Of a DNA stretch of 64,000 nucleotides, positions 40,938-56,985 are shown in pieces. The DNA lies in NCBI GenBank assembly GCA_963716865.1, contig CAVQUF010000002.1, forward strand, positions 86,316 through 150,315. The letters are read 5' to 3'. A program made the translations under genes and the position numbers. Under the pieces are notes generated by a model. That model was not told the DNA's origin and made no database searches. It was given only the letters and a program-made list of their open reading frames with translations. Each line of letters starts with the position of its first letter. Within the stretch, counting starts at the first letter, position 1. The stretch is from an uncultured Actinomycetes bacterium. Its GTDB lineage: Bacteria; Actinomycetota; Thermoleophilia; Gaiellales; Gaiellaceae.

Positions 40938-42053
40938 ATGGAGCGTCTGCTCGTCCTGGGCGCCGGCGCAGGCCAGCTCGGCCTGCTCGCGGCAGCGCGT
41001 GAGCGCGGCCTGTTCGTGATCGCGGTCGACCGCGACGCGGGCGCGCCGGGCTTCCGCTACGCCGACCGGCGGGCGATCGTCTCCGTCGACGACGAGCCCG
41101 CTCTCGAGCGCCTGGCCGAGGCCGAGCGGATCGACGGAGTGGCCGCGCCGGGGGCCGACTGGCCGGTGGGCCCCGCCGCCCGCATCGCGGCAAGGCTCGG
41201 CGTGCCCCATCCGATCTCGCCCGAGACGGCGCTGCTCTCGACCTCGAAGCTGCGCCAGCGCGAGCGCTTCGCCGAGGTGGGCGTGCCGCAGACGGGCTGG
41301 AAGGTGGTCACGCGCGCGGACGAGGTGGTCGGCGTGCCGTGCCTCGTGCGAGCGCCGGACCGGCACGGCCGCCGGGCCCGCGCGCTCGTGCGCTCCTCGC
41401 GGGAGCTGCGCGCCGCGGTCAAGACGGCGCTGCGCGCCTCCCGGATCGGGCTCTGCCTCGTCGAGGAGCTGGCCGAGGAGCCCGTGGTCACCGTCAGCGC
41501 CTTCTCCAGGGCCGGTGTCTTCCACGCGCTGACCGTGGCCGACCGCGCTCCCCTGACGCACGTCTGGGAGAGCGAGCACGCGGACGCGGCGGTGGCGCTC
41601 GCGCGGCAGGCCGCTGATGCCCTCGAAATCCAGGACGGCGCGTCCGTCACCCAGCTGCGCATCGGTCCCGACGGGCCGCGTGTGCAGGGAGTCTCGGCGC
41701 GGACCGGCGGCGGCCACGAGGCGGAGCTCTGCCGGGCTGCGCTCGGCGTCGACCTGAACGGTCTCGCGCTGGCGGCCGCGCTCGGCGAGCCGATCTCGGA
41801 GCGGCGCCTGCGGCCTCGCCGCCGCGTCGGCGGTGCCTGCGTGCTCTTCCTCAGCGGCGCGGGCGAGGCCGAGGGCCTCGCGGAGGCGGAAGCCGCGCCG
41901 GGGATCGAATGGGTCCGCGTCTACGGCTGCGGGTCGGACCGCGCCGGTGCCGTGCTCGCAACGGGCGAGAGCCGTGCCCAGGCTCTCGAGCGGGCGACGC
42001 GGGCGGCCGAATGCGTACGCTTCCGCGCGGCCGATGCCCAGGCGCTCGCCTAG
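40938..42053 (+). CDS. ATP-grasp domain ligase (type 1; paralogue of the frameshifted 32247..33465)
   Basis: MERLLVLGAGAGQLGLLAAARERG pre-ATP-grasp start, like 33465 downward; 371 aa. Confidence 0.8.
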   Translation: MERLLVLGAGAGQLGLLAAARERGLFVIAVDRDAGAPGFRYADRRAIVSVDDEPALERLAEAERIDGVAAPGADWPVGPAARIAARLGVPHPISPETALLSTSKLRQRERFAEVGVPQTGWKVVTRADEVVGVPCLVRAPDRHGRRARALVRSSRELRAAVKTALRASRIGLCLVEELAEEPVVTVSAFSRAGVFHALTVADRAPLTHVWESEHADAAVALARQAADALEIQDGASVTQLRIGPDGPRVQGVSARTGGGHEAELCRAALGVDLNGLALAAALGEPISERRLRPRRRVGGACVLFLSGAGEAEGLAEAEAAPGIEWVRVYGCGSDRAGAVLATGESRAQALERATRAAECVRFRAADAQALA

Positions 42054-43037
42054 ATGAACAAACGGACCCGGATCCTCGCGACGCTCGTCGTCACCGGTCT
42101 CTGCACCGCGTACATCCTCTGGAAGATCAACATCCACCAGACGCTGCACGTGATCGCGAATGCGAACTACGCCTACTTCTTCGCCGCGTTCGCGATCATG
42201 GCGCTCTCCGTCTGGCCGATGGCCTGGCGCTGGGGGCGGCTGCTGCGGGTGCGTGGGATTCACGACCGGCTGGGCTGGCTGGTGCGCGCGTACTTCGTCG
42301 CCTACACGGCGGGGCAGGTGCTCCCGACGGCCGTCGGCGGCGACGCCGTCCGGATTTACGAGACCGCGCGCCGGCACGAGGGCCAGGGAGGCCCGGTCGC
42401 GGCGTCCGTGCTGCTCGAGCGTGCGCTCGGCGGCGCAGCGACGCTCGCCCTGGCGGCGGTCGGGTTCGCGCTGGCGGTCGGCCGCTACCCGGTCGGCCCC
42501 TACCTCTGGATCGAGCTGTTCTTCGTCCTCGCGACGATCGTCCTCGCGGTGGCGCTCTTCTCCCGGCGCGCGCGGCCGCTGCTCGCCCGGACCGCCCCGC
42601 TCCTACGGAAGGTCTGGCTCGAGCGCCCGATACGCGCCGCATACGAGGGGCTGCACTCGTACCGCGATCACCCCGACCTCCTGGCCGGCGTCTTCGTGCT
42701 CACCCTCGCCGTGCAGTCCGTGCGCGTGCTGGCGATCTGGTGCGCCGGGAAGGCGGTCGGCGTCGAGCTCTCCCCGAGGCCGTACTACGTGATGGGGCCG
42801 CTGCTGTTCCTCGTCCTGCTCGTGCCGTTCTCGATCAACGGGATCGCCGTGCGCGAGTCGTTCTTCGTCAGCTTCCTCGGGAGGCTCGGCGTCGATGCCG
42901 ACAAGGCCTTCGCGACCGGATTCATCTTCTTCATGGTCACGATCGCCCTGGCGCTTCCGGGCGCGATCCTGCTCGGCTGGCAGGCACTGCGCGGCCTCTT
43001 CGCCCCGAACGATGCCCCGCAGTTACCACGCAGCTAG
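42054..43037 (+). CDS. Flippase-like membrane protein (lysylphosphatidylglycerol synthase TM-region / UPF0104 family)
   Basis: About 8 TM. AGQVLPTAVGGDAVRIYETARRH is the family signature. The ATG immediately follows the upstream stop. Confidence 0.8.
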   Translation: MNKRTRILATLVVTGLCTAYILWKINIHQTLHVIANANYAYFFAAFAIMALSVWPMAWRWGRLLRVRGIHDRLGWLVRAYFVAYTAGQVLPTAVGGDAVRIYETARRHEGQGGPVAASVLLERALGGAATLALAAVGFALAVGRYPVGPYLWIELFFVLATIVLAVALFSRRARPLLARTAPLLRKVWLERPIRAAYEGLHSYRDHPDLLAGVFVLTLAVQSVRVLAIWCAGKAVGVELSPRPYYVMGPLLFLVLLVPFSINGIAVRESFFVSFLGRLGVDADKAFATGFIFFMVTIALALPGAILLGWQALRGLFAPNDAPQLPRS

Positions 43038-43038
43038 C

Positions 43039-43968
43039 GTGTCCGCGGCCTCGCCCGAGGATCGCGTGGAGCGCGCAGTCTCGGTCGTGGTCGTGACCTA
43101 CGACGGGCTCCCGTGGGTCGAGCGCTGCCTCGAGAGCGTGAGCGGCTACGAGACGATCGTCGTCGACAACGGCTCGACGGACGGGACGATCGAGCTGGTT
43201 CGGGAGCGCTTCCCTGACGCGCGCCTGCTCGAGCAGGCGAACAAGGGCCTCGGCGCGGGCTCCAACGTCGGCATGCGAATCGCGGCCGGCGACTACTTCC
43301 TGCTGCTGAACTCCGACGCGTGGGCGGTCGGCGATGCGGTCGAGAGGCTCACGGCGTTCGCCGAGGAGCATCCCGAGGCGGCGGTCGTCGGCCCGCGGCT
43401 CCTCAACCCGGACGGCTCGCTGCAGCCGTCGGTTCGCGGCTTCCCGACGCTCTGGCGGCTGGCGACCGAGTACTTCTTCCTGCGCAAGCTCGCACCGAGG
43501 TCACGGGCGCTGAACGCGTTCTACGGCTCCCGCTTCGCGCACGACGAGGTGCGCGAGGCCGAGTTCCTGATGGGCGCCTGCCTCCTCGTCCGCCGGCAGG
43601 CCGCCGATACCGTAGGGCTCTTCGACGAGGACTTCTTCATGTTCAGCGAGGAGACGGACTGGTGCTACCGCTTCCGGCAGGCCGGCTGGAGCGTGCTCTT
43701 CACCCCGGAAGCGGAGTTCGTCCACGTGGGGGGTGCGACGACGGCGCGTAACTGGGGGCCGATGTACCGGGAGCAGCTTCGCGGGCACCTTCGCTTCATG
43801 GCGAAGCACCACGGGCTGCGTGAGGCGGAGCGGGCCCGGCGGCTGCTGCTCGCGTCGATGCGGCTGCGGTCGGTCGTCTTCCGCGGCGAGCGGCGCGCGG
43901 CGTCCGCAGAGGCGGCCCGGTGGCTCTCGGGCTCGACCGTGCCCGAGCTGCTGGAGCCGTCCGGGTGA
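43039..43968 (+). CDS. Glycosyltransferase family 2 (rhamnosyltransferase-like)
   Basis: VSVVVVTYDG, VVDNGSTDGT, LLNSDA, FFMFSEETDWCYR. GTG 43039 (track ORF 42895). Confidence 0.9.
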   Translation: MSAASPEDRVERAVSVVVVTYDGLPWVERCLESVSGYETIVVDNGSTDGTIELVRERFPDARLLEQANKGLGAGSNVGMRIAAGDYFLLLNSDAWAVGDAVERLTAFAEEHPEAAVVGPRLLNPDGSLQPSVRGFPTLWRLATEYFFLRKLAPRSRALNAFYGSRFAHDEVREAEFLMGACLLVRRQAADTVGLFDEDFFMFSEETDWCYRFRQAGWSVLFTPEAEFVHVGGATTARNWGPMYREQLRGHLRFMAKHHGLREAERARRLLLASMRLRSVVFRGERRAASAEAARWLSGSTVPELLEPSG

Positions 43969-45074
43969 CCTCCGCGGCACGCCCCACGGCGCTCGTGGTC
44001 GACGTCGGCTGGGTGAACGGGCTCGCCGCGATCCGCTCGCTCGGCCGTGCGGGCGTGCCCGTGCTCGCGCTCGACCACCGGCCGAGCGCGCTCGGCTTCC
44101 GCTCGCGCTACGCGAAGCCCGTGCTCTGCCCGGACCCGCAGGACGAGGAGGCGTTCGTCTCGTTCGTGGAGGGGCTCGGGGAGGCGCTCAACGCGCCCGC
44201 ACCCGTCTTCGCGACGCACGACGAGCCGCTGAACGCGATCGCCCGCGCGGCCGGGCGGCTCGGCGACCGGTTCCTGTACCCGTTCCCGCCCTGGGAGGTC
44301 CTGGCGCGGATCCAGGACAAGCGCGAGCAGCTCGCGGCGGCGGAGAGGGCCGGGATCGCGGTCCCGCGGACGGAGGCTCCGAGCTCGGCCGCGGAGGCGC
44401 GCGCGGCCGCGGACGGGCTCGGCTACCCGGTCCTGGTCAAGCCGTCCTCGACGGAGGGCTTCAAGCGCCGGTTCGGGCGCCAGGCGTTCCGGTGCGAGAC
44501 CGGCACGGAGGTCGAGCGCGCATTCGGCGAGGCCGAGCACTACGGGCCGCTCGTCCAGGAGCTCATCCCGGGCGCCGACGGGACGCTCTTCACGCTAGGC
44601 AGCTACCTCGCCGCCGACGGCGAGGCGCTCGGGCTCTTCTGCGGGCGCAAGCTGCGCCAGACGCCGCCCGGCGTCGGCACCTGTCGCGTGGGGGAGGCGG
44701 TCTGGGCCGAGGACGTCGTCGAGCAGGGGCTGCGGCTCCTGCTCGAGGTCGGGCACACGGGGCTGTCGCAGGTCGAGTTCAAGCGCGACCCGCGTGACGG
44801 GGTGCTGCGGCTGATGGAGATCAACCCGCGGCTGTGGCAGTGGCACGGGCTCGCGACGGCATGTGGCGTGGACCTGCCGCGGATCGCCTACGAGGACCTC
44901 ACCGGCGAGCGGCCGGCTCGGGCCTCGATGAACGGGAAGCGCCGCCGCTGGGCGATCACACTGCAAGCCGGCGAGCGCCCGGCCCTGCAGCGGCCGCCGT
45001 ACGTCGACGCGGTCTTCGCCGTCGACGACCCCAAGCCCGCTCTCGTCCAGGCGACCCGGTTGCTGCGGAGATGA
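43965..45074 (+). CDS. ATP-grasp carboxylate-amine ligase (type 2; D-aspartate-ligase-like)
   Basis: GLAAIRSLGRAGVPV, GYPVLVKPSSTEGFKRRFG, LVQELIPG, EFKRDPRDGVLRLMEINPRLW. GTGA overlap upstream. Confidence 0.85.
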   Translation: MTSAARPTALVVDVGWVNGLAAIRSLGRAGVPVLALDHRPSALGFRSRYAKPVLCPDPQDEEAFVSFVEGLGEALNAPAPVFATHDEPLNAIARAAGRLGDRFLYPFPPWEVLARIQDKREQLAAAERAGIAVPRTEAPSSAAEARAAADGLGYPVLVKPSSTEGFKRRFGRQAFRCETGTEVERAFGEAEHYGPLVQELIPGADGTLFTLGSYLAADGEALGLFCGRKLRQTPPGVGTCRVGEAVWAEDVVEQGLRLLLEVGHTGLSQVEFKRDPRDGVLRLMEINPRLWQWHGLATACGVDLPRIAYEDLTGERPARASMNGKRRRWAITLQAGERPALQRPPYVDAVFAVDDPKPALVQATRLLRR

Positions 45075-47116
45075 CATCGGTGACCGCCGACCTCCGCCTG
45101 GAGCTCGAGCCTCGCGCGCTGCCGCTCGCCTGGCTCGCGGCGCCCGTCCTGCTGGGTCTCTCGCACCTGCTGCCCGCGACGGGCGTCGGCCTCGCCGTCC
45201 GGCTCGCAGCAGCGACCCTCTGCCTCCTCGTCCCCGGCACGATCGTGGCGCGCGCGCTCGGGCTCAGCGGCCTCGCGCCCGCGTTCACGTGGAGCCTCGG
45301 GACGCTCGCCGTCGGGATGATGGTCATGTTCGCCGTGCACGGGTCGATCTGGCTCGCGCTCGGCGTGATGGTCGGCGTGAGCGCCTGCGCGGTGCCGTTC
45401 GCACTGCGAAGGCCGCCGCCGGGCATCGCGGCCTGGAGCCTGGCCATCCTCGGGCTCGGGGTCGTGGCCGGGATCGCGCTCTGGTGGGTCGCGGCCTTCG
45501 GCGGCGACTCCTTCTTCCACCTCGCCCGCGTGCGCAAGCTCGTCGACTTCCACTCGATCTCGCTGCGGAGCCTCGACGAGTACAAGGACGGCGGGTTGCA
45601 CCCCGGCTACGCGTTCCCGCTCTGGCACGGCTTCCTCGCGCTCGTCTCCAAGCTCGCAGGGGTGGATCCCACCCAGGTGGTGCTGCACGGGCCGACGGTG
45701 CTGATGCCGCTCTCGTTCCTGCTCACCTACGAGTCGGGGGTCGCGCTCTTCCGCTCGCACTGGGCCGGGCTCTCGACGCTGCTCGCCTCGTTCGCGCTGC
45801 TCGGCCTCGCTCCCGGCCACGGAGGCTCGTACGTCTCCCTGGCGCTCGCCGCCAACGCGAGCAGGATGCTCGTGCTGCCCGCGCTGCTCGCGCTCGTGTT
45901 CCTCTATGTGCGCTCGCCGTCCTGGCAGCTGCTCGTCTCGGTCGCCGCCGCCGCCGGTGCGATGAGCCTGATCCACCCCCCGCACTCGGCGCTCGTCCTG
46001 ATCCTGCTGGCCGGGTTCCTCGTCGTCCGCCTGCTGCTGGCCCGGGAGGACGTCGCGTCGATCGCTGCGGCGCTCGCGGCCGTCGCGATTCCGACGGCGG
46101 CGGTTGCCGTCTGGCTGCTGCCGATCGTCCGCGAGACGGTCGCGCACAACCCGGGCCCGGGCGAGGTGCACCGGGCGTTCGCGAACTACCGCCACGAGCT
46201 GGACGTCTTCGGGCTGCACAGCTACCGCCTCAAGCCGGACGTCTTCGGGCGCGGGGGAGCCGTCGCGGTTGCCACGCTTGCGCTGCTGCCGTTCGCGATC
46301 CTGGCGCGGCGCCGGCTCTGGGCGTCGTTCGTCCTCGGCGGGATGCTCGCCGCGTTCGCGGTCACGCTCCTCGCGTTCGTCTTCCCGCACCTGGCGGACG
46401 CCCTCTCGATCTCCCAGGCGCGCCGACTCGCCGGATTCTCCCCGAAGGCCTTCGCCCTTGCGGGCGCGGCGCTCGTCCTGGCCGGCCTCCTGCGCTGGGC
46501 GGTGCTCCCGGTCGCGCTGGCCTCGGGGATCGTGCTCCAGTGGCTCGTCCCCGGCGACTTTGGCCGGCCGTTCGGGCACGGGCACAGCGGCCCCGCCTGG
46601 CTGACGTGGTTCGCGTTCATCGCCGCCGGCGCCGCGGTGGTCTTCGGCGTGCTCGGCGACCGGCTTCTGCCCCGGCTCGAGCGGGACGGCCCGCTGGCCG
46701 CCGCGGCCGTGGCCCTGTTCGTGCTCCCGGTCGCCGTGCACGGCTACGCCAACTGGAGCAGACCGGCGAGCGCTCGGCCGCCGCTGTCGCCGGCGCTGGT
46801 GCGCGCGCTCGGCGAGCGTCTGCCGCAGGGGGCGGTCGTCTTCACCGACCAGCTGACGGGCTACGAGCTCGGCGCCTTCCTGCCCGTCTACGTCAACTCC
46901 ACGCCGCCGATTCACAGCAGCGACACGCGCGCGAACCACCCCGCCCTCCGCGTCCGCGACGAGCAGCGCTTCTTCCGCAACGGCGGCCCGCTCTCGATGC
47001 TGCGCCGCTACGGCGCCGGCTGGCTGCTCGTCGACCGCACCCGCGTCCTCCACACGCGCTTCAACCTGCCGCGGGTCTACGCGGATGGGCGATACGTTCT
47101 GTACCGAATGCGATGA
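45071..47116 (+). CDS. Large polytopic membrane protein, unknown family (possibly GT-C-like)
   Basis: 681 aa with at least 12 hydrophobic segments by eye and a soluble tail RRYGAGWLLVDRTRV...YADGRYVLYRM. ATGA overlaps at both ends. Confidence 0.55.
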   Translation: MTSVTADLRLELEPRALPLAWLAAPVLLGLSHLLPATGVGLAVRLAAATLCLLVPGTIVARALGLSGLAPAFTWSLGTLAVGMMVMFAVHGSIWLALGVMVGVSACAVPFALRRPPPGIAAWSLAILGLGVVAGIALWWVAAFGGDSFFHLARVRKLVDFHSISLRSLDEYKDGGLHPGYAFPLWHGFLALVSKLAGVDPTQVVLHGPTVLMPLSFLLTYESGVALFRSHWAGLSTLLASFALLGLAPGHGGSYVSLALAANASRMLVLPALLALVFLYVRSPSWQLLVSVAAAAGAMSLIHPPHSALVLILLAGFLVVRLLLAREDVASIAAALAAVAIPTAAVAVWLLPIVRETVAHNPGPGEVHRAFANYRHELDVFGLHSYRLKPDVFGRGGAVAVATLALLPFAILARRRLWASFVLGGMLAAFAVTLLAFVFPHLADALSISQARRLAGFSPKAFALAGAALVLAGLLRWAVLPVALASGIVLQWLVPGDFGRPFGHGHSGPAWLTWFAFIAAGAAVVFGVLGDRLLPRLERDGPLAAAAVALFVLPVAVHGYANWSRPASARPPLSPALVRALGERLPQGAVVFTDQLTGYELGAFLPVYVNSTPPIHSSDTRANHPALRVRDEQRFFRNGGPLSMLRRYGAGWLLVDRTRVLHTRFNLPRVYADGRYVLYRMR

Positions 47117-48363
47117 AAGTCCTGCTCGTGACGATGTACTTCCCGCCGGCGGGCGGGGGCGGCGTGCAGCGTCCGCTGAAGATGGCCACGCACCTGCCGG
47201 CGCTCGGGATCGAGACGCACGTGCTCGCGCCCGACGATCCGAAGTGGCTCCACCGCGACGACGAGCTGCGCCCGCCGACGCAGGCCTTCGTCCACCGCGC
47301 CCGCTACCTCGGCCCGCGCGCGCGGCTGCCCTCGGAGGAGATGCATGGCCTCACGGGGACCGACCTGCTGCTCGCGCAGGCGAAGCTCGCCTACCGGCGC
47401 GTGCTGCTTCCCGACGCAAGCGTGACGTGGCTCCCGACCGCCGTGCCGGCCGCGGTCCGGATCGTCAAGGACGAGGGCATCGACGCCGTGATCACGACGA
47501 GCCCGCCGAACTCGATGAACATGATCGGCGCCGCGGTCAAGCGCATCGCCGGGATCCCGTGGGTGGCCGACCTACGCGACGCCGTGCTCGCGAACGCCGA
47601 CCGCCGCTTCGACCGGACGGCCGTGCGCGTGAAGGAAAAGGCGCTGGAGCGGGTCGTCCGCCTCGTCGCCGGCTCCGCCGACGCGGTCGTGGCCGTCTCG
47701 GAGCCGATCGCCGACGAGGTGCGGGCCTTCGCACCGGCCGGGCCGGTGCGCGTGATCCCGAACGGCTGCGACTTCGACGACTTCGCCGGCCTCGAGTACC
47801 GCAGGGGCGACCGCTTTCGCATCACCCACACCGGCAGCTTCTTCGGCCAGCGGGATCCGCGCCCGTTCCTGAGCGCGCTCGCCGAATCGGGTCTCGACGA
47901 CGCCGTGGCGCGCTTCGCGGGCGACTTCCGCGCCGCCGACCGCGAATGGGTGGACACGCTCGGCCTCGGCGATCGCCTCGAGCTGCTCTCCTACCTTCCG
48001 CACCGGGAGGCGCTCGAGCTCCAGCGCGACTCCGAGGCGAACCTCCTCCTGCTGCCGGAGGCGGCCGGGCGAGGGAAGGTCGTTCCCTCCGGGAAGATCT
48101 TCGAGTACCTCGCCGCCGAGCGGCCGATCCTCGCGGCGGTGCCTCCGGACGGAGCGGCCGCCGACCTCGTGCGCGAGACGGGCGCGGGGATCGTCGTCGC
48201 GCCGGACGACGAGCGCGGGCTGCGCGAGGCGCTGCAGGGCCTTCACGCGCGCTGGCGGGCGGGAAAGCTCTCCGACGCCTACCTCTCACCCGAGCAGCGG
48301 AAGCGGCTCTCGCGGGAGACCCGCGTCGAGGAGCTGGCCGACGTGCTCTGGAGCCTGCAGTGA
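47113..48363 (+). CDS. Glycosyltransferase family 4 (GT1 fold)
   Basis: MKVLLVTMYFPPAGGGGVQR start and GKIFEYLAAERPILA. Confidence 0.85.
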   Translation: MKVLLVTMYFPPAGGGGVQRPLKMATHLPALGIETHVLAPDDPKWLHRDDELRPPTQAFVHRARYLGPRARLPSEEMHGLTGTDLLLAQAKLAYRRVLLPDASVTWLPTAVPAAVRIVKDEGIDAVITTSPPNSMNMIGAAVKRIAGIPWVADLRDAVLANADRRFDRTAVRVKEKALERVVRLVAGSADAVVAVSEPIADEVRAFAPAGPVRVIPNGCDFDDFAGLEYRRGDRFRITHTGSFFGQRDPRPFLSALAESGLDDAVARFAGDFRAADREWVDTLGLGDRLELLSYLPHREALELQRDSEANLLLLPEAAGRGKVVPSGKIFEYLAAERPILAAVPPDGAAADLVRETGAGIVVAPDDERGLREALQGLHARWRAGKLSDAYLSPEQRKRLSRETRVEELADVLWSLQ

Positions 48364-48401
48364 CACGTCCACGCACGGCCCGGCCCAGGCTGCCCCAAAA
48401 A

Positions 48402-48472
48402 GGCGCCGCTTGCGGCGCCGTTCCCAGGAGGCGCGGGCTTTGCCCGTGCGTCCGTCTGAAATGACCGGTCGA
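48402..48472 (+). repeat. Repeat family A, copy 4
   Basis: GGCGCCGCTTGCGGCGCC GTTCCCAG GAGGCGCGGGC-TTT-GCCCGTGCGTC CGTCTGAAATGACCGGTCGA. Confidence 0.8.
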
Positions 48473-48552
48473 GGCGCGGTTCACCAGAGCCGCGAAAGCG
48501 CATTGGTTTCTTTTTCTTCCTCGCGGCCGTCTTCTGCGCGAGCTTCGAGAAA

Positions 48553-49803
48553 GTGCAGTGGAACGTGGCCGGGTCCGTGTTCCTCGCCGACCTGACAGCG
48601 CTCGGCTTCCTCGGCTCGTTCGCGCTCGACCGTCTCGGCTCGTCGCGCGGCGTCGGACGGGTGCCGCGGACCGCGGCCGTGCTGCTCGTGTTCCTCGGCG
48701 CGTTCCTGCTCGTCTACCTGATCGGCTTCTTCAACCTCGAGACGAGCCAGGCGCTGAGCCAGTTCGGCAAGGGGATCGTCAAGTGGCTGATCCACTTCGC
48801 GTTCCTGATCGTCGGCGTCATCTATCTGACCGGGCGCTCGGCGCGGTACTTCTGGCGCACGCTCGCGTGGTTCCTGGGCGGGATCGCCGCCAACGCCGCC
48901 TACGGGATCCTGCAGCTTGCCTCGGCCCAGGCCGGCCACAACCTCGACTCGGTGTTCCTCGTGCCGCTGACGCGAGGCGCCAGCCAGATCAACGTCTACG
49001 GCGCGGTCAACGGCACGAACGTGTACCGGCCGAACGCGCTGACGGGCGACCCGAACCACCTCGGGATCATGCTGCTGATGCCGATCCTGATCCTGACGCC
49101 GATCTACCTGCGGCTCGGGCGGGGACACCGGCTCCGGCGCTGGCTCGCGGCCCTGATCGCGTTCCTGCTGATCGTCGAGCTCGCGACGCTCTCGCGCAGC
49201 GGGCTGCTCGGGCTGACGGTCGGCGCCTTCGTCCTGCTGATTCCGTACCGGCATCTGCTCTTCTCGCGCCTCGCGATCCTTCCGCTCATGCTCGTCGTGA
49301 TCCCGGTCGCCTACGAGGTCTACCGCCGGCGGCACTTCTTCGACGTCGTGATCCGCTCGCGGCTCTCGCGCGGGACCGGGACGAACACGCACCTCGACGT
49401 CTACGCCTTCGTCCCGAAGATCCTGCACGTGCACCCGTTCTTCGGCCTCGGCTTCAACAACTTCTCGGTCTACTACGAGTTCGTCACCGGCAAGACGAAC
49501 TGGGGGCCGCACTCGTACTACGTGGCGCTGCTCGTCGAGGGCGGGCTCGTCGGGACCGCGCTTTTTGCGGTCTTTCTCTGGTTCCTGTTCACGAAGCTCG
49601 CGGCGGCGCGGCGGCTCGGGCGCGCGCTCTCGGCCGCCCACGACCCCCTGGCGGCACGTGTGCGGCCGCTGGCGTGGGGGATGACCGCGGCGCTCGTCGG
49701 GACGATGGCCGCGAACGTCTTCTACCTGACGATGTCGTTCCTCTACTTCTACGTCTTCGTGATGCTCGCGCTCGTGACACCGGCGGTCTTCTCGAAGCGG
49801 TGA
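48553..49803 (+). CDS. O-antigen ligase/polymerase family (Wzy_C-like) membrane protein, copy 2
   Basis: VELATLSRSGLLGL and GPHSYYVALLVEGGLVG motifs. The frame is open from 48460 and encodes a further TM-like IGFFFFLAAVF with no canonical start. Confidence 0.8.
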   Translation: MQWNVAGSVFLADLTALGFLGSFALDRLGSSRGVGRVPRTAAVLLVFLGAFLLVYLIGFFNLETSQALSQFGKGIVKWLIHFAFLIVGVIYLTGRSARYFWRTLAWFLGGIAANAAYGILQLASAQAGHNLDSVFLVPLTRGASQINVYGAVNGTNVYRPNALTGDPNHLGIMLLMPILILTPIYLRLGRGHRLRRWLAALIAFLLIVELATLSRSGLLGLTVGAFVLLIPYRHLLFSRLAILPLMLVVIPVAYEVYRRRHFFDVVIRSRLSRGTGTNTHLDVYAFVPKILHVHPFFGLGFNNFSVYYEFVTGKTNWGPHSYYVALLVEGGLVGTALFAVFLWFLFTKLAAARRLGRALSAAHDPLAARVRPLAWGMTAALVGTMAANVFYLTMSFLYFYVFVMLALVTPAVFSKR

Positions 49804-50840
49804 AGCTCCTGGTGCTGACGACGTCGTACCCGCGCTACGAGGGCGACCCGACCGTGAACTTCCTCGGCGAGGCGGTGGCGCAGCTGCGCGGGCGCGGGGT
49901 CGACGTGGACGTCGTCTCGCCGGCGACGTTCCCGCACTACGGGATCGCGTACGGCTCGGGCATCGTCGGCAACCTGCGGCGTGACCCCTGGAGGGCGGCG
50001 ATGCTGCCGGCGATGTTCTGGAACTTCCGGCGGGCGGCCGGGAAGCTGGCGCCCGAGGCCGACCTGATCCACGCGCACTGGCTTCCGAGCGGGGCAGTCG
50101 CGGCGACCTGCGGGCGGCCGTTCGTCGTCCAGCTCTGGGGCACCGACGTCGAGCTCGCCAGGAAGGCGAAGCCGCTTGCCCGTGAGGTGCTGCGGCGGGC
50201 GCGGCTGACGATCTGCCCGTCGAACGCGCTGGCGACCGCGGCGCGCGAGCTGGGGGCGCGCGAGGTGCGCGTGATCCCGAGCGGCGTGGAGATCCCGGCC
50301 GAGGTGGCCGAGGAGGCCGAGCCGCCGGAGGTGCTCTTCGCGGGGCGGCTTTCGCGCGAGAAGGGCATCCTCGAGCTCGTGGAGGCTGCGAACGGGATGA
50401 AGCTGGTGGTGGCAGGCGACGGGCCGCTGCGCGACTCGGTGCCCGGCGCGCTCGGGTTCGTCCCGCACGACGAGCTCGGCCCGCTGTACGAGCGGGCGGC
50501 GGTCGTCGCGTGCCCGTCCCACCGCGAGGGGTTCGGCGTCGTCTGCGCGGAGGCGATGGCCTATGGGCGGCCGGTGGTCGCGGGCGCGGTCGGCGGGCTC
50601 CTCGACCTGGTCGTGGACGGTGAGACCGGGGTGCTCGTACCGCCGCGCGACGTGCGGGCGCTGCGGGCGGCCCTGGAGCGCCTGCTCGGCGACCGGGAGC
50701 TGCGGGAGCGGCTCGGCGCAGCGGCCCGAGAGCGGATCAAGGAGCGCTTCGCCTGGCCGGCGGTGACCGACGCGACGCTCGCGGCCTACGAACGTGCGCT
50801 CGCGGACGCGTCCGAAGCCCCCTCGAAGCCGAAGAGGTGA
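49800..50840 (+). CDS. Glycosyltransferase family 4
   Basis: FAGRLSREKGI and REGFGVVCAEAMAYGRPVVAGAVGGL (E-x7-E region). GTGA overlap upstream. Confidence 0.9.
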   Translation: MKLLVLTTSYPRYEGDPTVNFLGEAVAQLRGRGVDVDVVSPATFPHYGIAYGSGIVGNLRRDPWRAAMLPAMFWNFRRAAGKLAPEADLIHAHWLPSGAVAATCGRPFVVQLWGTDVELARKAKPLAREVLRRARLTICPSNALATAARELGAREVRVIPSGVEIPAEVAEEAEPPEVLFAGRLSREKGILELVEAANGMKLVVAGDGPLRDSVPGALGFVPHDELGPLYERAAVVACPSHREGFGVVCAEAMAYGRPVVAGAVGGLLDLVVDGETGVLVPPRDVRALRAALERLLGDRELRERLGAAARERIKERFAWPAVTDATLAAYERALADASEAPSKPKR

Positions 50841-52021
50841 CGGCTACAGTGACCGGCAGGGTGACTGACACGTTCGAGGCTCGCGACCGGCCCGTCGTCG
50901 TCTTCGGTCTACTCTGGGCCGGGCTGTCGTTCGCGCGCAGTCTCGGCCGCGCCGGTGTTCCGGTCACCGGCATCACGATGCACCCGCACGAGTTCGGGGC
51001 TCGCTCTCACTACCTGCGCGAGGTGCGGCGCGCCTCGGGCGACGCGGCCGTCCTCGCGGACCTGCGCGCGGCTGCAGACGGCAAGCGTCCACTCCTGCTT
51101 CCTGAGCGCGACGACCACGTCGAGCTCGTGCTGAGGCACTGGTCCGAGGTGACCGCGCTCTACGACCTGCCGATGCCGCCTGATCCCGAGGTCGCCCGCC
51201 GGCTGCGCCGCAAGTCCACCTTGCCGGAGGAGGCCGCGCGCGCCGGAGTCCTGACGCCGCCAACCGTGGCCGCCGACTCGGAGGAGACGTTGCGCTCACT
51301 CGAGCTGCGGCCTCCGTTCCTGCTGAAGCCGGTCGAGGGACAGCACTTTGGCGGCTCGTTCGGCGAGAAAGTCCTCGTCGCCGAGACGGCAGACGTCCTC
51401 GTCGGTCTGTGGCGGGAGGCTCGCAGGCGCGGTTTCGACACCGTCGTGCAGGAGCTCGTCCCGGAGGCGCACGAGAAGATCTGGTCGCTGTTCACGTATA
51501 TCGGCCGTAGCGGCCGGCCGCTGGCAACCGTGACGGGTGTCAAGGTGCGCCAGGGGCCGATCTACTTCGGCACGAGCGCCGTTTTTCGCACGTCTCCCGA
51601 GCCTCGCGTCCGCGAGCTCGGGCTGCGGCTGCTCGAGACCGCCGGCTACCGGGGCTTCGGTCACGTCGAGTTCGCCCACGACCATCGCGACGGAGAGTTC
51701 AAGCTCCTCGAGGTCAACACTCGTGTGCCGATGTGGGGTGGAGTGGCAATGAGCCGTTACCTCGATATGGCTCGGATCGCCTACGACGACCTCTGCGGAC
51801 GGCCGGAGCCCGAGCCTCGTGACTTCGGCGACGAGGTGTCGTGGAGCTTCCTGGCCAAGGATCTGTGGGTCTCGCTGGCGATGGCACGCCGGCGCGAGCT
51901 CACGCCGCGCGAGTTCCTCGGCCCGTACCTGCACCGCAAGAAGGTTCGCGCCGTGTTCGCCGCCGACGATCCGTTGCCGGCGCTCGCAGTGCTTCCCTAC
52001 CTCGGCACGAAGCTCGCGTAG
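50837..52021 (+). CDS. ATP-grasp carboxylate-amine ligase (type 2; paralogue of 43965..45074)
   Basis: GLSFARSLGRAGVPV, PFLLKPVEGQHFGGSFG, VVQELVPE, EFAHDHRDGEFKLLEVNTRV. Confidence 0.85.
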   Translation: MTATVTGRVTDTFEARDRPVVVFGLLWAGLSFARSLGRAGVPVTGITMHPHEFGARSHYLREVRRASGDAAVLADLRAAADGKRPLLLPERDDHVELVLRHWSEVTALYDLPMPPDPEVARRLRRKSTLPEEAARAGVLTPPTVAADSEETLRSLELRPPFLLKPVEGQHFGGSFGEKVLVAETADVLVGLWREARRRGFDTVVQELVPEAHEKIWSLFTYIGRSGRPLATVTGVKVRQGPIYFGTSAVFRTSPEPRVRELGLRLLETAGYRGFGHVEFAHDHRDGEFKLLEVNTRVPMWGGVAMSRYLDMARIAYDDLCGRPEPEPRDFGDEVSWSFLAKDLWVSLAMARRRELTPREFLGPYLHRKKVRAVFAADDPLPALAVLPYLGTKLA

Positions 52022-52030
52022 CCTCTCGCC

Positions 52031-53163
52031 ATGCGAGTCGCCCTGCTCGATCCGCCGAGCTTCACCGCGCCGTACGACCATGCCCTCGCGTCCGCCCTCG
52101 CCCGGCGTGGACACGACGTGACGCTGCTCGCCTCGCCGTTCACGCACGGCGAGATCCCGGCGCCGGACGGCTACCGGCGCGAGGAGGTGTTCCTGTCGTT
52201 CTCGTCCCGGCTCTCCCGCCTGGCGCCTCGGTCTCGCGTCCGACTGGTCCTAAAGGGGCTCGACTACGGCCGAGCGCCGTCCGGCTCGTCCGGCGGATCG
52301 AAGGACTGCGGCCGGACATCGTGCACGTGCAATGGCTCGGCGTGCCGCGCTACGACATCGTCTGGCTTCGCCGCGTAACGGCGCGCTTCCCGACGGTTCT
52401 GACGGCACACGATGTCGTCCCCCGCCTCGAGCGCAACGCACGAGCGTGGCGCGAGGCGCTCGCGCGTGTAGACCGCGTCGTCGTCCAGTCGCAACGCGCC
52501 GTGGATCGGCTGGCCGAGCTCGGCGTCGAGCGCTCGCATCTCGTGCGCATCCAGCACCCGGTCTTCCCGGGACCCGCCGAGCAGCCGTCACCGCCGGCCG
52601 GCTCGACACTCCTCTTCTTCGGCCTGATCCGGGAGCACAAGGGGCTCGACGTCCTGGTGCGCGCGCTGCCCGCGGTCGCCGCGAGCGTCCCGGATGTGCG
52701 CCTCATCGTCGCCGGAGACCCGCTTGACTCAGTCGAGCCCGCGCAGCGCCTGGCGAGCGACCTGGGCGTGGCGGAGCGCATCGAGTGGCGGCTCCGCTTC
52801 CTTGGCGAGCACGAGATAACCGCTGTCATGGGGGAGGCTACCCTTGTCGTCTTGCCCTACCGCAAGATCGACTCGTCCGGCGTGCTGGCGACCGCGCTCG
52901 GCTACGGCCGCCCCGCGGTCGTGACCGACGTCGGCGGGCTCCCCGACGCGATCCGTGAGTTCGGCGCAGGCCGCATCGTGCCGGTCGAGGACGCCGCAGC
53001 GCTCGCCGACGCCTGCGCCGATCTTCTCTCCGACCGAACAGCGCTGGCCGAGGCTTTCCGCGGTACCGGGGCCGCACGCCGCTCCCTGACCTGGGACAGG
53101 GCTGCGGCCGCGCACGAGGCCGTGTACGAGGAGGCCGTCGGCGCCAGGAGCGGCGTGGCGTGA
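52031..53163 (+). pseudogene. Glycosyltransferase family 4 interrupted by a frameshift near 52250..52285
   Basis: MRVALLDPPSFTAPYDHALASALARRGHDVTLL...LKGLDYG (track 52031..52378), then PSAVRLVRRIEGLRPDIVHVQW...FFGLIREHKG...GYGRPAVVTDVGGL in the -1 frame (track 51841..53163). Span is 1133 nt = 3n-1. Confidence 0.7.
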
Positions 53164-53810
53164 GCGTCCAGGCGGTCGCCAAGGAAGTCCTCGATCGGCT
53201 GGTTGCCGCCGTCGGGCTGGTAACGCTCTCGCTCGTCTTCGCCGGGATCGCGCTCTGGATCCGCCTCGAGTCAGGCGGCCCGGTCATCTTCCGGCAGCCG
53301 CGCGTCGGCAAGGACGGCCGCGTGTTCTCGATGCTCAAGTTCCGGACGATGGTTCCGGACGCTGTCGAGCTCGGCTGCGAGCTGGCGCTGAGCGAGGATC
53401 CGTTCGCCGTCCTGCCGGAAGACCCGCGGATCACCCGGTGCGGCCGCTTCCTCCGGCGGACGAGTCTCGACGAGCTGCCTCAGCTGTGGAACGTCCTGCG
53501 CGGCGAGATGAGCCTCGTCGGCCCCAGGCCCGATCTCGTCGAGCAGGCGGCGAACTACGCCCCTGCCGATCGCCGCCGCCTAGCCGTGAAGCCCGGAATC
53601 ACCGGCTGGGCCCAGGTGCACGGCCGCGACGAGATTCCTTGGGAGGAGCGCTTCCGGCTGGACGCCTGGTACGTCGACAACTGGTCGCTCGGCCTCGACG
53701 CACGGATCCTCCTCCGCACCTTCGCGCAGCTCGGGCGCCCCGAGCCGATCCCCGTCGAGGACAAGCTCAACATCGAGCGGGCGCGGGCAGCGCGGCGAGG
53801 CGGCGAGTGA
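53160..53810 (+). CDS. Initiating sugar-phosphate transferase (PglC/WbaP C-terminal type), copy 2
   Basis: VIFRQPRVGKDGRVFSMLKFRTM and DELPQLWNVLRGEMSLVGPRP. GTGA overlap upstream. Confidence 0.9.
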   Translation: MSVQAVAKEVLDRLVAAVGLVTLSLVFAGIALWIRLESGGPVIFRQPRVGKDGRVFSMLKFRTMVPDAVELGCELALSEDPFAVLPEDPRITRCGRFLRRTSLDELPQLWNVLRGEMSLVGPRPDLVEQAANYAPADRRRLAVKPGITGWAQVHGRDEIPWEERFRLDAWYVDNWSLGLDARILLRTFAQLGRPEPIPVEDKLNIERARAARRGGE

Positions 53811-54751
53811 GAGAGGTCGAGCCGGCCGGCTGGGACGACCTGCTGGAGGAGCTGGGCCTCGGGGACGCGTACTTCCGCCGGGCATACGTCGAGAGCTCAT
53901 GCGTGCTCGAGCCGGGCCGGCCACTCCTGCTGGAGCACGAGGGCACCGTCTTCGCGGCGATCGAGCGCGAGGAGCCCCTCGACCTAGTGACTCCGTACGG
54001 CTACGGCGGCCCGATCGGCGGAGACGCGGCCGCGTTCTGGCCGGCGTACGAGGCGTGGTGCGGCGAACGGGGCGTGGTGAGTACATTCATCCGTTTCCAC
54101 CCTCTGTACGAGAACCACCGCCGAGCGCCGATCCGAGTCGAGTCGCTGGCGCCGACGGTCGGCTGGCGGCTTGGCGCGGAGGACCTGCTCGCGGGCATCC
54201 ACTGGAAGCACCGCAACAACGTCCGCAAGGCAGAGGCGGCGGGTGTGGCCGTCAGGGCGGAGGAGGGGCTGGGCGACTTCGTCCCACTGTACGAGAAGAC
54301 CATGCGGCGCGCCGGCGCCTCGCCCTTCTACTTCTTTGCCGGCGCCTACTGGCAGGCGCTCGAGCGGCTGGGCGACGGCCTCGTACGCTTCGACGCTCTG
54401 GTCGGAGACGAGCTGGTGGCAAGCGCGCTTTGCCTCGCCTCGCCACCGTGGCTCCACTACCACCTCGGCGGGACGGCCGAGGCTGGCCGTGCGACCGGCG
54501 CCACGACGTTCCTGCTCCTGGAGGCCGCGCGCTGGGCGCGGGAGCGAGGGTACGAGCGCTTCCACCTCGGCGGCGGCATCGGCGGGCAGCAAGACTCGCT
54601 GCACCACTTCAAGAGCCGCTTCGATCCCGAGGGGCTGCTCGAATTGGCGATCGGAAAAGCCGTCCACGACGAGGACGCCTACCGCGAGCTGGCCGGCCCC
54701 GGCGCGGGCCTTGACGGGTTCTTCCCCGCCTACCGGGCTCCGGCAGGCTGA
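53807..54751 (+). CDS. FemAB-like / GNAT-fold (Acetyltransf_6-type) transferase
   Basis: PWLHYHLGGT, ERGYERFHLGGG, LHHFKSRF. GTGA overlap upstream (track ORF 53438). Confidence 0.7.
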   Translation: MREVEPAGWDDLLEELGLGDAYFRRAYVESSCVLEPGRPLLLEHEGTVFAAIEREEPLDLVTPYGYGGPIGGDAAAFWPAYEAWCGERGVVSTFIRFHPLYENHRRAPIRVESLAPTVGWRLGAEDLLAGIHWKHRNNVRKAEAAGVAVRAEEGLGDFVPLYEKTMRRAGASPFYFFAGAYWQALERLGDGLVRFDALVGDELVASALCLASPPWLHYHLGGTAEAGRATGATTFLLLEAARWARERGYERFHLGGGIGGQQDSLHHFKSRFDPEGLLELAIGKAVHDEDAYRELAGPGAGLDGFFPAYRAPAG

Positions 54752-55809
54752 GGCTGCCAGCCGAAGATCTCCAGCCGCGCCGTGTCGAGGTCGACGGGCA
54801 AGGGGCGCGCGCCTCCGCCTCCGCCGCGGGCGACGTACACGGCCGCCGTCGAGGACGAGGCGAACGCGAGGTAGCGGCCGTTCGAGGACCACGCGAGCGA
54901 GTCGGCCGGCGCGGGTAGGTCGGCGGTGCGCTGGACTCCCCTGGGGTACAGGAAGCCGATCGCGCTGCCCCGGCCGTAGACCACCGTCCCGTCGCGCAGG
55001 AACTGGGCGTCGTGCACGAAGCCGAGACCGCGTTCCTTTTTCGCCGTCCAGAGGTAGGTCGGGTGCGAGAGCAGCGCGCCCGAGGACTCGTACAGGATCC
55101 GGCCGCCGGGGCCCCACTGGATGCGTTCCCCGGAGCCGCCGGTCCCGAGCGACCGGACCTGGCCGCCCGACACAGGGACGGCCAGCAGCGTGAGCTCGGC
55201 GATCGGGTAGTCGAGCCCGGGGGCGAAGGCGAGCAGGCGGCCGTTCGGCGACCAGGCCAGCCCGTCCGCGTGCCGGACGACGAGCTGGGGGCTGCCGCCG
55301 GTGGCCGGGACGACGTACAGGTAGTTGTCGCTCTCGCGCCGTCGGGAGAGGAAGGCCACCTGCTTGCCGTCCGGGGACCACCGCGCGCCGAACTCGTCGC
55401 GGTCCTTCGTCGGCGTCAGATCGAGTGGCGGGCCGCCTCCGGCCGGGAAGCTCAGGACGTCGTCGCTTCTGCGCCGGCGGGCGGTCACGAGGACGTGCGT
55501 CCCGTCGGGCGACCACTCCGGCTGCTCGAGCGGGTCGACACCGCGGGCCAGCAGGCGGGCGGCCCCGCTCGCGGCGTTCACCACGTAGAGCCTGGCGGTG
55601 GAACCGGTCGCGACCGTGGCCAGGAAGGATCCACTGACCTGCACCGGAGGCCCGACCTGCGTCAGCGTGGTCGTCGTCTGCGCCTTGGTGATGCCGCTCG
55701 GCTGCGTCGCGGTGGACGCCGTCCGCGCCTGGGTCGGCGAGGTCGTGCCCGAGTCGCAACCCGCAGCGAGCACGACGACCAGCGCGACGAAGAGGGCCTG
55801 TCGAGCCAT
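54730..55809 (-). CDS. TolB-like beta-propeller lipoprotein (PD40/WD40-like repeats)
   Basis: Lipobox VVLAAGC. Repeated WSPDG/WSPNG blades (EWSPDGTHVL, ARWSPDGKQVAFLS, LAWSPNGRLLAFA, LAWSSNGRYLAFA). The upstream part of track ORF 54730..57105 is antisense to the GT2. Confidence 0.8.
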   Translation of the reverse strand: MARQALFVALVVVLAAGCDSGTTSPTQARTASTATQPSGITKAQTTTTLTQVGPPVQVSGSFLATVATGSTARLYVVNAASGAARLLARGVDPLEQPEWSPDGTHVLVTARRRRSDDVLSFPAGGGPPLDLTPTKDRDEFGARWSPDGKQVAFLSRRRESDNYLYVVPATGGSPQLVVRHADGLAWSPNGRLLAFAPGLDYPIAELTLLAVPVSGGQVRSLGTGGSGERIQWGPGGRILYESSGALLSHPTYLWTAKKERGLGFVHDAQFLRDGTVVYGRGSAIGFLYPRGVQRTADLPAPADSLAWSSNGRYLAFASSSTAAVYVARGGGGGARPLPVDLDTARLEIFGWQPQPAGAR

Positions 55810-55872: not shown

Positions 55873-56985
55873 GTGATCCTGAAGGCGCTTTTCTGGGGCA
55901 GCCTGGGCGGGCTCGCATGGACGCACGTCGGCTACCCGCTCGCCGCGGCCGGCCTGCGACGGGTGCGCGGGCGCGAGATCGCGAAGGCCGACATCACGCC
56001 GAGCGTCACGCTGATCGTCCCCGCTCACGACGAGGAGGACGTGATCGGCCCGCGGGTCGAGAACCTGCTGGAGCTCGACTACCCGCAGGAGAAGCTCGAG
56101 CTCGTCGTCGCCTCGGACGGCTCGACCGACCGCACGGACGAGATCGTCGCCGCGCACGACGGCCGCGTGCGCCTCCTGCAGTGCGAGCGCGCCGGGAAGC
56201 TGCCGTCGATGAACCGCGCCGTGCGAGAGACCGAGAGCGAGATCGTCGCGTTCGGAGACGCGAACGCGACCTGGGCGCCCGACGCCCTGCGCAAGCTCGT
56301 TCGCAGCTTCGCCGACCCCGACGTCGCCTACGTCTGCGGCCAGGTGCGCTTCCAGCGGCAGGACGGCACGAACAAGGAAGGCCTCTACTGGCGCTACGAG
56401 CTGTGGCTGCGGGAGAGCGAGTCGGGCCTCGGCTCGATCACCGGCGGCAACGGCGCGATCTACGCGGTCCGGCGCTCGGACTACGTCGAGTGGCCGTTCG
56501 GGCACGACCTCGGCTTCCCGGCCCTGATGGTGCAGCGCGGCCGCCGCGCCGTCTACGAGCCCCAGGCGCTCGCGTTCGAGAAGCCCTCGCGCGACATCGA
56601 GGACGAGTACCGGCGCAAGGTGCGGATGCTGCCCTGGTCGTGGCGGCACCTGTTCGAGGCCGGAAGCATGCGCGGCGTCCCGCCGCTCTACCTCGCGGAG
56701 CTCGTCTCCCACCGCGTCCTCCGCTACGCGAGCGGCTTCCTCCACCTGGCGCTGCTGACGACGAGCGCCGCGCTCGCGCGCGAGGGGCTGGTGTACCAGG
56801 CGGCGCTCGCCGCCCAGGCCGGGTGGCTCGCGCTCGCCGCGGCCGGGAAGCTGCGCCTGAAGGTCCCGGGCGCGGGAATCGCCTACTACTACCTGCTGAT
56901 GAGCTGGGCGACGGTCGTCGCGCTGGGCCGCTACCTGCGCGAGGGCGCCCCGCTCATGTGGGAGAAAGCGGAGGGAACGCGCTAG
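55873..56985 (+). CDS. Glycosyltransferase family 2 (membrane-associated, synthase-like)
   Basis: VTLIVPAHDEEDVI, VASDGSTDRT, FGDANA, GGNGAIYAVRR, plus C-terminal TM segments. Confidence 0.9.
   Translation: MILKALFWGSLGGLAWTHVGYPLAAAGLRRVRGREIAKADITPSVTLIVPAHDEEDVIGPRVENLLELDYPQEKLELVVASDGSTDRTDEIVAAHDGRVRLLQCERAGKLPSMNRAVRETESEIVAFGDANATWAPDALRKLVRSFADPDVAYVCGQVRFQRQDGTNKEGLYWRYELWLRESESGLGSITGGNGAIYAVRRSDYVEWPFGHDLGFPALMVQRGRRAVYEPQALAFEKPSRDIEDEYRRKVRMLPWSWRHLFEAGSMRGVPPLYLAELVSHRVLRYASGFLHLALLTTSAALAREGLVYQAALAAQAGWLALAAAGKLRLKVPGAGIAYYYLLMSWATVVALGRYLREGAPLMWEKAEGTR

Follow-up and report, generated by a model that had tools for sequence, protein, structure and literature searches.

Paired ATP-grasp ligases in a glycan assembly locus of a Gaiellaceae bacterium and their possible role in the N-acylation of amino sugars

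Gene content of the operon

The window analysed here is a 64-kb stretch of DNA (contig C2, positions 86316-150315) from a genome of the family Gaiellaceae, class Thermoleophilia, which comprises 3.0 Mb in five contigs with about 71% GC. It contains a single, tightly coupled operon on the plus strand (window positions 40938-54751), in which ATP-grasp ligases are combined with glycosyltransferases (GTs) and membrane proteins, and which is discussed here as a candidate system for the N-acylation of amino sugars. Genes were called using third-position GC and frame phase, chosen because of the high GC content; the called genes were classified with Pfam and NCBIfam profiles. Third-position GC is very high in all genes. 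The ATP-grasp proteins fall into two types, each with two copies (types 1a and 1b, types 2a and 2b); type 1a lies upstream of the operon. The operon consists of the following genes:

40938-42053, plus strand: type-1b ATP-grasp protein, L-amino-acid-ligase/PurT-like (weak LAL_C2 and PurT-like matches), with a non-canonical active site
42054-43037, plus strand: stand-alone MprF-TM-like, flippase-like membrane protein of 327 amino acids (aa) (PF03706, TIGR00374)
43039-43968, plus strand: GT2 glycosyltransferase, 309 aa
43965-45074, plus strand: type-2a ATP-grasp carboxylate-amine ligase (CPSase_L_D2, ATPgrasp_Ter), with a canonical active site
45071-47116, plus strand: 681-aa polytopic membrane protein with a GT-C fold (AlphaFold2 model; weak PTPS_related match)
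47113-48363, plus strand: GT4-like glycosyltransferase, 416 aa
48553-49803, plus strand: Wzy_C-domain membrane protein (polymerase or ligase)
49800-50840, plus strand: GT4 glycosyltransferase (GT4a)
50837-52021, plus strand: type-2b ATP-grasp ligase (CPSase_L_D2, ATPgrasp_Ter), with canonical motifs
52031-53163, plus strand: GT4 glycosyltransferase (GT4b), split by a frameshift
53160-53810, plus strand: small phosphoglycosyl transferase (PGT; Bac_transf), initiating on polyprenyl phosphate
53807-54751, plus strand: FemAB/Acetyltransf_6-like double-GNAT protein

All genes named in a preliminary description of this DNA were found where it had placed them, or very near; the gene after the 681-aa protein is, as a correction, the 416-aa GT4-like gene (47113-48363). 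Seven junctions are 4-nt overlaps (ATGA or GTGA, at 43965, 45071, 47113, 49800, 50837, 53160, and 53807). The interleaving by 4-nt overlaps that had been described for the whole operon holds at these positions, but the first two genes abut without overlap (TAG-ATG, 42053/42054), and the GT2 gene starts at 43039 without a 4-nt overlap. The GTG start of the FemAB-like gene overlaps the stop codon of the PGT gene as GTGA, which agrees with the translational coupling previously proposed between the FemAB-like gene and the second initiating transferase. In two homologues of the region 45071-48363 (P0398 and P0457), the GT-C protein and the next GT4 were called as a single product of 1056-1100 aa, which reflects either a genuine fusion or read-through across the ATGA overlap.

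The GT4b gene is split by a single-base frameshift at an AAAGGGG run near 52252 (52245-52260), and it is in frame in four relatives. The sole sizeable intergenic gap of the operon (48363-48553) contains a perfect GC-rich hairpin, GGCGCCGCAAGCGGCGCC, at 48402-48419, with a T-run on the minus strand only. Apart from this hairpin, the promoter and terminator scan of the operon gave nothing useful.

The type-2 ATP-grasp family and its gene context

Types 2a and 2b share 33% sequence identity (E-value 1e-41), and types 1a and 1b share 32% (E-value 2e-18); the two types are unrelated by sequence (E-value 0.08). The active site of type 2a contains the ATP-binding lysine, K159, and the Mg-binding motif E285-x-N287-x-R289. 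These four residues are nearly invariant across 57 aligned type-2 homologues, and both motifs are also visible in type 2b. The structure model of type 2a (pLDDT 96.4) has a confident three-domain ATP-grasp fold. A fold search with this model gave 434 PDB matches at E-values of 0.001 or below, and the 50 listed are biotin carboxylase, PurK, and carbamoyl phosphate synthetase (CPS)-like ATP-grasp chains. The PDB sequence search with the ligases gave only weak generic matches (CPS, PurT, and the structural-genomics protein 2pn1).

The preliminary description had considered that the ATP-grasp genes might belong to purine or biotin-type metabolism. This identity was rejected, since the best scores were 47.9 bits against a cut-off of 339 for PurT, 24.9 against 441 for PurK, and 24.8 against 768 for AccC, and Pfam found no Biotin_carb_N or Biotin_carb_C domains in the ligases. 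The type-2 proteins belong to a large family. Counted as clusters at 50% identity, homologues number 6,157 at an E-value of 1e-10 or below and 767 at 1e-30 or below.

Domain fusions were scanned in 20 long members of this family. Seven of the 20 are fused to a de-N-acetylase, namely a CE4 polysaccharide deacetylase (four) or PIG-L (three). The other partners are DegT, a formyltransferase, Acetyltransf_6, and LMWPc, a low-molecular-weight tyrosine phosphatase (one each), together with GT4 and GT2 (two each); several proteins contain a second ATP-grasp domain, and one contains a peptidase fragment. Nine partners make, uncover or acylate a sugar amine, and none is a dehydrogenase. Most of the fusion partners act on sugar amines (by making, exposing or modifying them) or in building the glycan. 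Domains fused to type-2 relatives occur as separate genes in the window, where the DegT, AsnB, formyltransferase, PIG-L, and AsnA genes of the preliminary description are all present. The genes around the operon are as follows:

1850-3010, plus strand: DegT/DnrJ-type sugar aminotransferase
8483-10372, minus strand: AsnB-type amidotransferase
10398-11108, minus strand: first PGT
21749-22768, plus strand: sugar N-formyltransferase, directly after the TauE gene of a sulfonate operon
22765-23436, plus strand: PIG-L de-N-acetylase
25810-27250, minus strand: Wzx-type flippase (Polysacc_synt)
27289-28272, plus strand: nucleoside diphosphate-sugar 4,6-dehydratase/epimerase
32247-33465, minus strand: type-1a ATP-grasp protein, frameshifted (ATP-grasp_4, LAL_C2, CPSase_L_D2)
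33467-34870, minus strand: NAD-dependent sugar epimerase/reductase, RmlD-like, directly upstream of type 1a
54730-55809, minus strand: PD40/Tricorn-like beta-propeller, convergent with the operon
55873-61524, plus strand: downstream operon with a GT2, two PQQ-like beta-propellers, a Wzz chain-length protein, and another GT2
61521-62693, minus strand: AsnA

A second Wzy_C gene also lies upstream of the operon; further upstream are a DUF354 gene with the first PGT and AsnB, and the sulfonate operon.

The occurrence of the type-2 ligase was scanned in 151 Thermoleophilia genomes. It is present in 57 of them, and it is missing from most genomes of the Gaiellaceae. In 32 fetched Thermoleophilia loci, the neighbours within 10 kb of the ligase were scored. 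A GT4 and a DUF7033-GT4 protein were each found in 25 loci, a PGT in 13, PQQ propellers in 12, a third, PylC-like ATP-grasp type in nine, and PIG-L in eight. A UDP-sugar dehydrogenase was found within 10 kb in none of the 32.

The third ATP-grasp type (a PylC-like N-terminal domain with ATPgrasp_Ter, about 340 aa) often lies right after the PGT, for example at L047:14690-15697, L045:15039-16082, L041:8406-9440, and L042:7294-8358; it does not occur in this window. The DUF7033-GT4 protein (785-915 aa) lies directly 3' of the ligase in the 25 loci (e.g. L047:10489-12846 and L045:11621-14368). Short CE4-like motifs (THDID, GLHGS) can be recognized by eye in its N-terminal half. Searches for a deacetylase identity of this partner gave no PDB sequence match and no BLAST similarity to a CE4-containing fusion protein.

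Tandem type-2 pairs are frequent in one Thermoleophilia family, and glycan loci with two to three ATP-grasp genes are common throughout the class. Because such tandem pairs and co-occurring ATP-grasp genes are common in these loci, multi-ATP-grasp glycan loci are a trait of the class Thermoleophilia and not a quirk of this genome. The ligase density that had been called unusual is therefore normal for the class. Two of the three type-2 paralogues of the genome, and two of its three type-1-like paralogues, lie within about 20 kb of the 3.0-Mb genome, which is far more clustering than chance placement would give. The third type-2 paralogue (36% identical to type 2a) lies in a second glycan locus of the same genome (G000, contig C1, about 269-296 kb), with Acetyltransf_6, GT2, two DegT, and PGT genes.

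The context of the ligases also bears on the nature of their acceptor. The preliminary description had suggested uronate, teichuronopeptide-like chemistry, in which the ligases would couple amino acids or amino alcohols to uronic acids at the C6 carboxylate, as Cj1438C-like enzymes do. ATP-grasp amidoligases carry out this reaction in the HS:2 and HS:19 capsules of C. jejuni (PMC11800379). The window contains an AsnB-type amidotransferase, and the genome contains two UDP-sugar dehydrogenases. However, these two sit on other contigs, and none was found in the 64-kb window. The TupA-like ATP-grasp family (PF14305) gave no match for any of the four ligases at E-values of 0.01 or below. Because of the fusion partners, the dehydrogenase count of zero in the 32 loci, and the missing TupA-like match, the acceptor is more likely to be a sugar amine than a uronate. 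Uronate amidation is therefore considered unlikely, and this part of the preliminary description is not retained. The Cj1438C/TupA-like enzymes of the C. jejuni capsule and the Bacillus halodurans teichuronopeptide resemble the present system in that an ATP-grasp protein in a polysaccharide locus forms a glycan amide, and they are sometimes fused to GT2 (PMC11800379). They activate the glucuronate carboxylate of the glycan, whereas the context of the window ligases points to sugar amines.

Proposed N-acylation of amino sugars

The reading that we favour, with modest confidence, is that the ligases attach amino acids or other small acids to the amino-sugar amines of a Wzy-type polymer. A complete Wzy-dependent pathway set is present in the window (two Bac_transf, Polysacc_synt, two Wzy_C, Wzz, GT2, and three GT4), which supports the earlier description of a lipid-linked (polyprenyl-phosphate, Wzy-type) glycan assembly locus. 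The amide decoration of free amino sugars, which had also been proposed, is well founded, because the DegT, PIG-L, and formyltransferase of the window are fused domains of the type-2 family. The preliminary description is thus partly supported; it was right in kind, as the locus points to an amide-decorated glycan, but the chemistry shifts from uronates to the N-acylation of amino sugars.

The substrates, the order of the steps, and the product are proposed here from the gene identities, folds, motifs, fusions, and synteny. The small PGT, by its domain, would start the repeat unit on polyprenyl phosphate, and the GT4 and GT2 enzymes would extend it. Sugars with a free amine may be made by DegT and the dehydratase, or uncovered by PIG-L. 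The type-2 ligases would turn a small carboxylate, probably an amino acid, into an acyl phosphate, which is then attacked by the sugar amine. Such a reaction would resemble that of D-aspartate ligase, the acceptor being a glycan amine instead of the lysine amine. The FemAB-like GNAT might act next, either by capping the chain or by adding another aminoacyl residue, and the formyltransferase could be the source of an alternative N-acyl group. The type-1 ligases may act earlier, on the nucleotide-linked amino sugar. Finally, Wzx would flip the repeat unit, the Wzy_C protein would polymerise or ligate it, and Wzz would set the chain length.

The flippase-like, GT2, and GT-C genes suggest an additional branch. 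The AlphaFold2 model of the 681-aa protein (pLDDT 79.9, pTM 0.86) has GT-C enzymes as all of its top 29 PDB matches (DPY19, ArnT, AftA, STT3/PglB/AglB, and Emb; probability 1.00, E-values 1e-6 to 5e-3), with TM-scores of only about 0.4. Homologues of this protein contain DUF6541. GT-C enzymes use polyprenyl-phosphate-sugar donors outside the membrane. The flippase-like protein matches PF03706 (126.7 bits) and TIGR00374 (46.6 bits against a cut-off of 43.2). A full MprF was rejected for this protein; its 327 aa contain only the transmembrane domain, and the C-terminal aminoacyl-phosphatidylglycerol synthase domain was not found. The GT2 was rejected as an ArnC/GtrB-like enzyme, and matches soluble GT2 enzymes instead (chondroitin synthase and GalT1).

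In genome G063, the gene order is dehydratase, type-1b, DegT, MprF-TM, GT2, and GT-C. At L053:4386-6458 (minus strand), which is orthologous to window positions 32247-34870, the RmlD-like epimerase and type 1a were called as one 690-aa product, which ties type 1a to nucleotide-sugar metabolism. Because of this gene order, this epimerase/type-1a product, and the GT-C fold, an Arn-like side-branch route is suggested for the flippase and GT-C, together with the GT2. The adjacent GT2 would probably load an amino sugar, made on a nucleotide and N-acylated, onto polyprenyl phosphate; the MprF-TM-like protein would flip it, and the GT-C protein would transfer the modified sugar to the polymer outside the membrane. 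The Arn pathway for L-Ara4N (ArnA/B/C/D/E/F/T) similarly combines an aminotransferase, a formyltransferase, a deacylase, a GT2, a small flippase, and a GT-C acting outside the membrane. However, the corresponding genes are scattered in the window, the GT2 is not ArnC-like, and the flippase is MprF-TM-like and not ArnE/F. The Arn pathway has no counterpart to the ATP-grasp ligases.

The FemAB-like protein scores 48.7 bits against Acetyltransf_6 (cut-off 22) and 33.8 bits against FemAB (cut-off 24), the latter over only about 75 residues. In a PDB sequence search, it came closest to an aminoacyl-tRNA-dependent peptide synthase (E-value 2e-4). For this GNAT family, an acyl-CoA donor is as possible as an aminoacyl-tRNA. 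One member of the type-2 family is a direct Acetyltransf_6/ATP-grasp fusion, and among the further Acetyltransf_6 genes of the genome is the one in the contig C1 locus mentioned above.

These features also bear on a role in the cell wall, in which the type-2 proteins would be true D-aspartate ligases and the FemAB-like protein a FemX, together building a peptidoglycan cross-bridge. Many type-2 orthologues bear the automated (JGI) name 'D-aspartate ligase', and the FemAB score is above its Pfam cut-off. However, no curated NCBIfam equivalog for this function was matched, and Pfam found no aspartate racemase among the open reading frames of the window. The type-2 genes are set among GT4, Wzy, and PGT genes, and their absence from most genomes of the family shows that they are not core wall genes. 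Three paralogues per genome would be unexpected for a single cross-bridge step. A peptidoglycan role is therefore considered highly improbable. The D-aspartate ligase Aslfm/AslA is a COG3919-type ATP-grasp enzyme that acts on a peptidoglycan precursor; it is a single-copy core gene with an aspartate racemase as partner. The type-2 ligases probably share its logic, namely the activation of a small amino acid as an acyl phosphate and its transfer to the amine of a large acceptor linked to a sugar nucleotide, but their genes are accessory, multi-copy, and located inside glycosyltransferase operons.

Several observations weigh against the N-acylation of amino sugars. The structural matches of type 2a are generic (14-21% identity) and give no clue to the substrate. 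Uronates are available, since the two UDP-sugar dehydrogenases are encoded elsewhere in the genome. No deacetylase lies inside the operon, and PIG-L and DegT are 18-40 kb away. The resemblance of the GT2 to an ordinary soluble enzyme weakens the Arn-like side branch. Type 1a and GT4b are frameshifted in this assembly, which may mean a partly broken pathway; the single-base shift of type 1a (near 33195-33220) is not in a homopolymer, and it leaves the N-terminal and catalytic parts in adjacent frames. In type 1b, the ATP-binding Lys is replaced by Arg and the Mg-binding Glu by Gly, and a 9-residue loop is deleted.

Type 1a is otherwise L-amino-acid-ligase-like with canonical motifs (LKP and VIEVGAR), the Mg-binding motif of the PurT/PurK/LAL type being E-x-x-x-R. 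Its orthologue in relative L008 is a single intact open reading frame, and the relatives are in frame at the site. Among the 120 closest homologue clusters of type 1b, the Arg variant occurs in 60; 40 of these keep the Glu, and eight have Gly or Ala, the window copy included. A more distant orthologue in G063 keeps both the Lys and the Glu and is fully canonical. The window copy is well conserved apart from the active-site changes. From these sequences, type 1b could be a pseudo-enzyme or have an altered chemistry. The preliminary description had counted four ligases. Four ATP-grasp genes in two paralogue pairs are indeed present, but 1a is frameshifted and 1b is without canonical catalytic residues; types 2a and 2b are the only two of the four that are both intact and canonical.

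The two frameshifts and the degenerate type 1b, with its Lys-to-Arg and Glu-to-Gly changes, raise the question of whether the locus is decaying, so that part or all of the decoration pathway would be non-functional. Against this, the GT4b shift lies in a homopolymer run of a long-read-style, five-contig assembly, a kind of site typical for sequencing errors. The Arg variant of type 1b is fixed in half of its homologue clusters and is thus under selection, the third-position GC noted above argues against decay in every gene, and the exact FemAB-like protein was found in two independent read sets. We regard decay of the locus as improbable.

The products of the ligases might also be soluble, such as a dipeptide or an acyl-amino acid, or a small glycoside based on GlcN and assembled, like mycothiol or bacillithiol, in GT4, deacetylase, and ligase steps. 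Type 1 is similar to L-amino-acid ligases, and L041 and L043 show ATP-grasp pairs with GT4 and phosphodiesterases, no Wzy or PGT being detected within 10 kb. The combination of GT4, de-N-acetylase, ligase, and GNAT parallels the logic of MshA/B/C/D, which has the same four activities. However, translational coupling joins the ligase genes of the window to those of the Wzy_C, PGT, GT-C, and flippase-like proteins, and PGT and propeller genes stand beside the ligase in 12-13 of the 32 loci. A soluble product thus seems quite unlikely, and the decoration of a polymer remains the favoured reading.

Variation of the locus and relation to known systems

A scan of species genomes with the 681-aa GT-C protein found four close loci (L008-L011), in which the locus is syntenic. 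Identity to the four relatives is 85-95% for the genes from type 1b through GT4a and for the GT2 downstream. The block 50837-54751 (type 2b, GT4b, PGT, and the FemAB-like gene) is just 54-69% identical to the block of the relatives; among L008-L011 the same block is 77-98% identical, save for comparisons with L010, some of which gave fragmented matches. Because this block is so much less similar than its flanks, the window looks, at the sequence level, as if it carries a divergent allele of a four-gene cassette, in a replacement resembling serotype switching. Such an allele swap suggests that the decoration is variable at the cell surface, where it might be recognized by phages or predators.

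Among known systems, the type B flagellin glycan of C. difficile is similar in several respects. In this glycan, Fuc3N is capped by taurine, alanine, and glycine, and its synthesis requires an ATP-grasp gene located next to FemAB-like and FdtB-like genes (PMC5207246, PMC5207245). The genes CDR20291_0242-0247 include a FemAB-like gene, an ATP-grasp gene (PF13535, the Pfam family of type 1a), and an FdtB-like gene of the dTDP-sugar aminotransferase type, beside glycosyltransferases, and in the amino-sugar product the amine bears a short peptide that includes the sulfonate taurine (PMC5207246, PMC5207245). Unlike the window, this is a Firmicute protein O-glycan system with one ATP-grasp gene and no Wzy, PGT, or GT-C, and members of the type-2 family are not reported from it.

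A sulfonate operon (Sat-CysC-CysH-ComA) neighbours the glycan operon (window region 14585-23436). The acyl group that the type-2 ligases would place on amino sugars might be, or include, a C3 sulfonate from this operon, e.g. a sulfolactyl-type acid; a sulfonate had already been named as a candidate in the preliminary description. ComA lies 10-30 kb from the ligase wherever both are on one long contig (G000, G063, G039, and G135, with a paralogue in G123). Glycan genes flank the sulfonate operon across the family; in each of six related genomes (L074-L079), varying combinations were found of LysR and Fe-ADH at one end (followed further out by PGT/AsnB or DUF354) and a FlgD-Ig protein at the other. 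Two of these six genomes share with the window the placement of the formyltransferase and PIG-L genes directly behind TauE. The proximity of ComA and ligase, the glycan flanks, the adjacency of TauE and formyltransferase, and the taurine-containing C. difficile precedent (PMC5207245) count in favour of a sulfonate donor. ComA was found in 21 of 26 related genomes, with or without a type-2 ligase. Against a sulfonate donor, most genomes of the family have the sulfonate operon but no type-2 ligase. We regard the link as a lead of low probability. If it is true, the abundant soil Gaiellaceae would have a sulfonated acyl-amido or peptidyl-amido envelope glycan, made by an uncharacterised family of glycan N-acyl ligases.

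The exosortase/PEP-CTERM exopolysaccharide loci (TIGR03019, and the O-ligase-like TIGR03097) also combine a FemAB-like gene, Wzy_C, a small sugar transferase, and AsnB in one locus. However, the window proteins score 34.5 bits against 260 and 51 against 188, respectively, and no exosortase is present; the PEP-CTERM-associated FemAB (TIGR03019, 260 bits being its equivalog cut-off) was therefore rejected. Multiple ATP-grasp ligases are not known for these loci. In Caulobacter, the FemX-like HfsK appears to modify the holdfast polysaccharide, and was proposed to act in the same pathway as the deacetylase HfsH (PMC5362036).

Amide-decorated glycans are already known; the new elements are the uncharacterised type-2 family with its fusion partners and its distribution in Thermoleophilia, together with the flippase/GT-C module. 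To our knowledge, the ligases that attach aminoacyl or acyl-amido groups to O-antigen sugars are mostly uncharacterised. Amide-linked glycine, alanine, serine, and threonine occur in E. coli O antigens (PMC7685785), and ATP-grasp and GNAT ligases have been linked in general terms to O-antigen and teichuronopeptide synthesis (PMC4431377). Through domain fusions and conserved gene order, the present analysis connects a large and unstudied family of ATP-grasp proteins with the sugar-amine chemistry of glycan synthesis. If the proposed N-acylation is true, this family would provide an enzymatic basis for aminoacyl-amido and acyl-amido sugars. The Gaiellaceae, like other Thermoleophilia, rank among the most abundant Actinobacteria of soil, and we know of almost nothing reported on their envelopes.

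The pair of PQQ-like propellers lies at window positions 57028-59686. Such propellers are likewise found downstream of the PGT in L047, L048, L059-L066, and L070, which belong to another family. This suggests that the PQQ-like propellers are a conserved extracytoplasmic partner of the glycan system.

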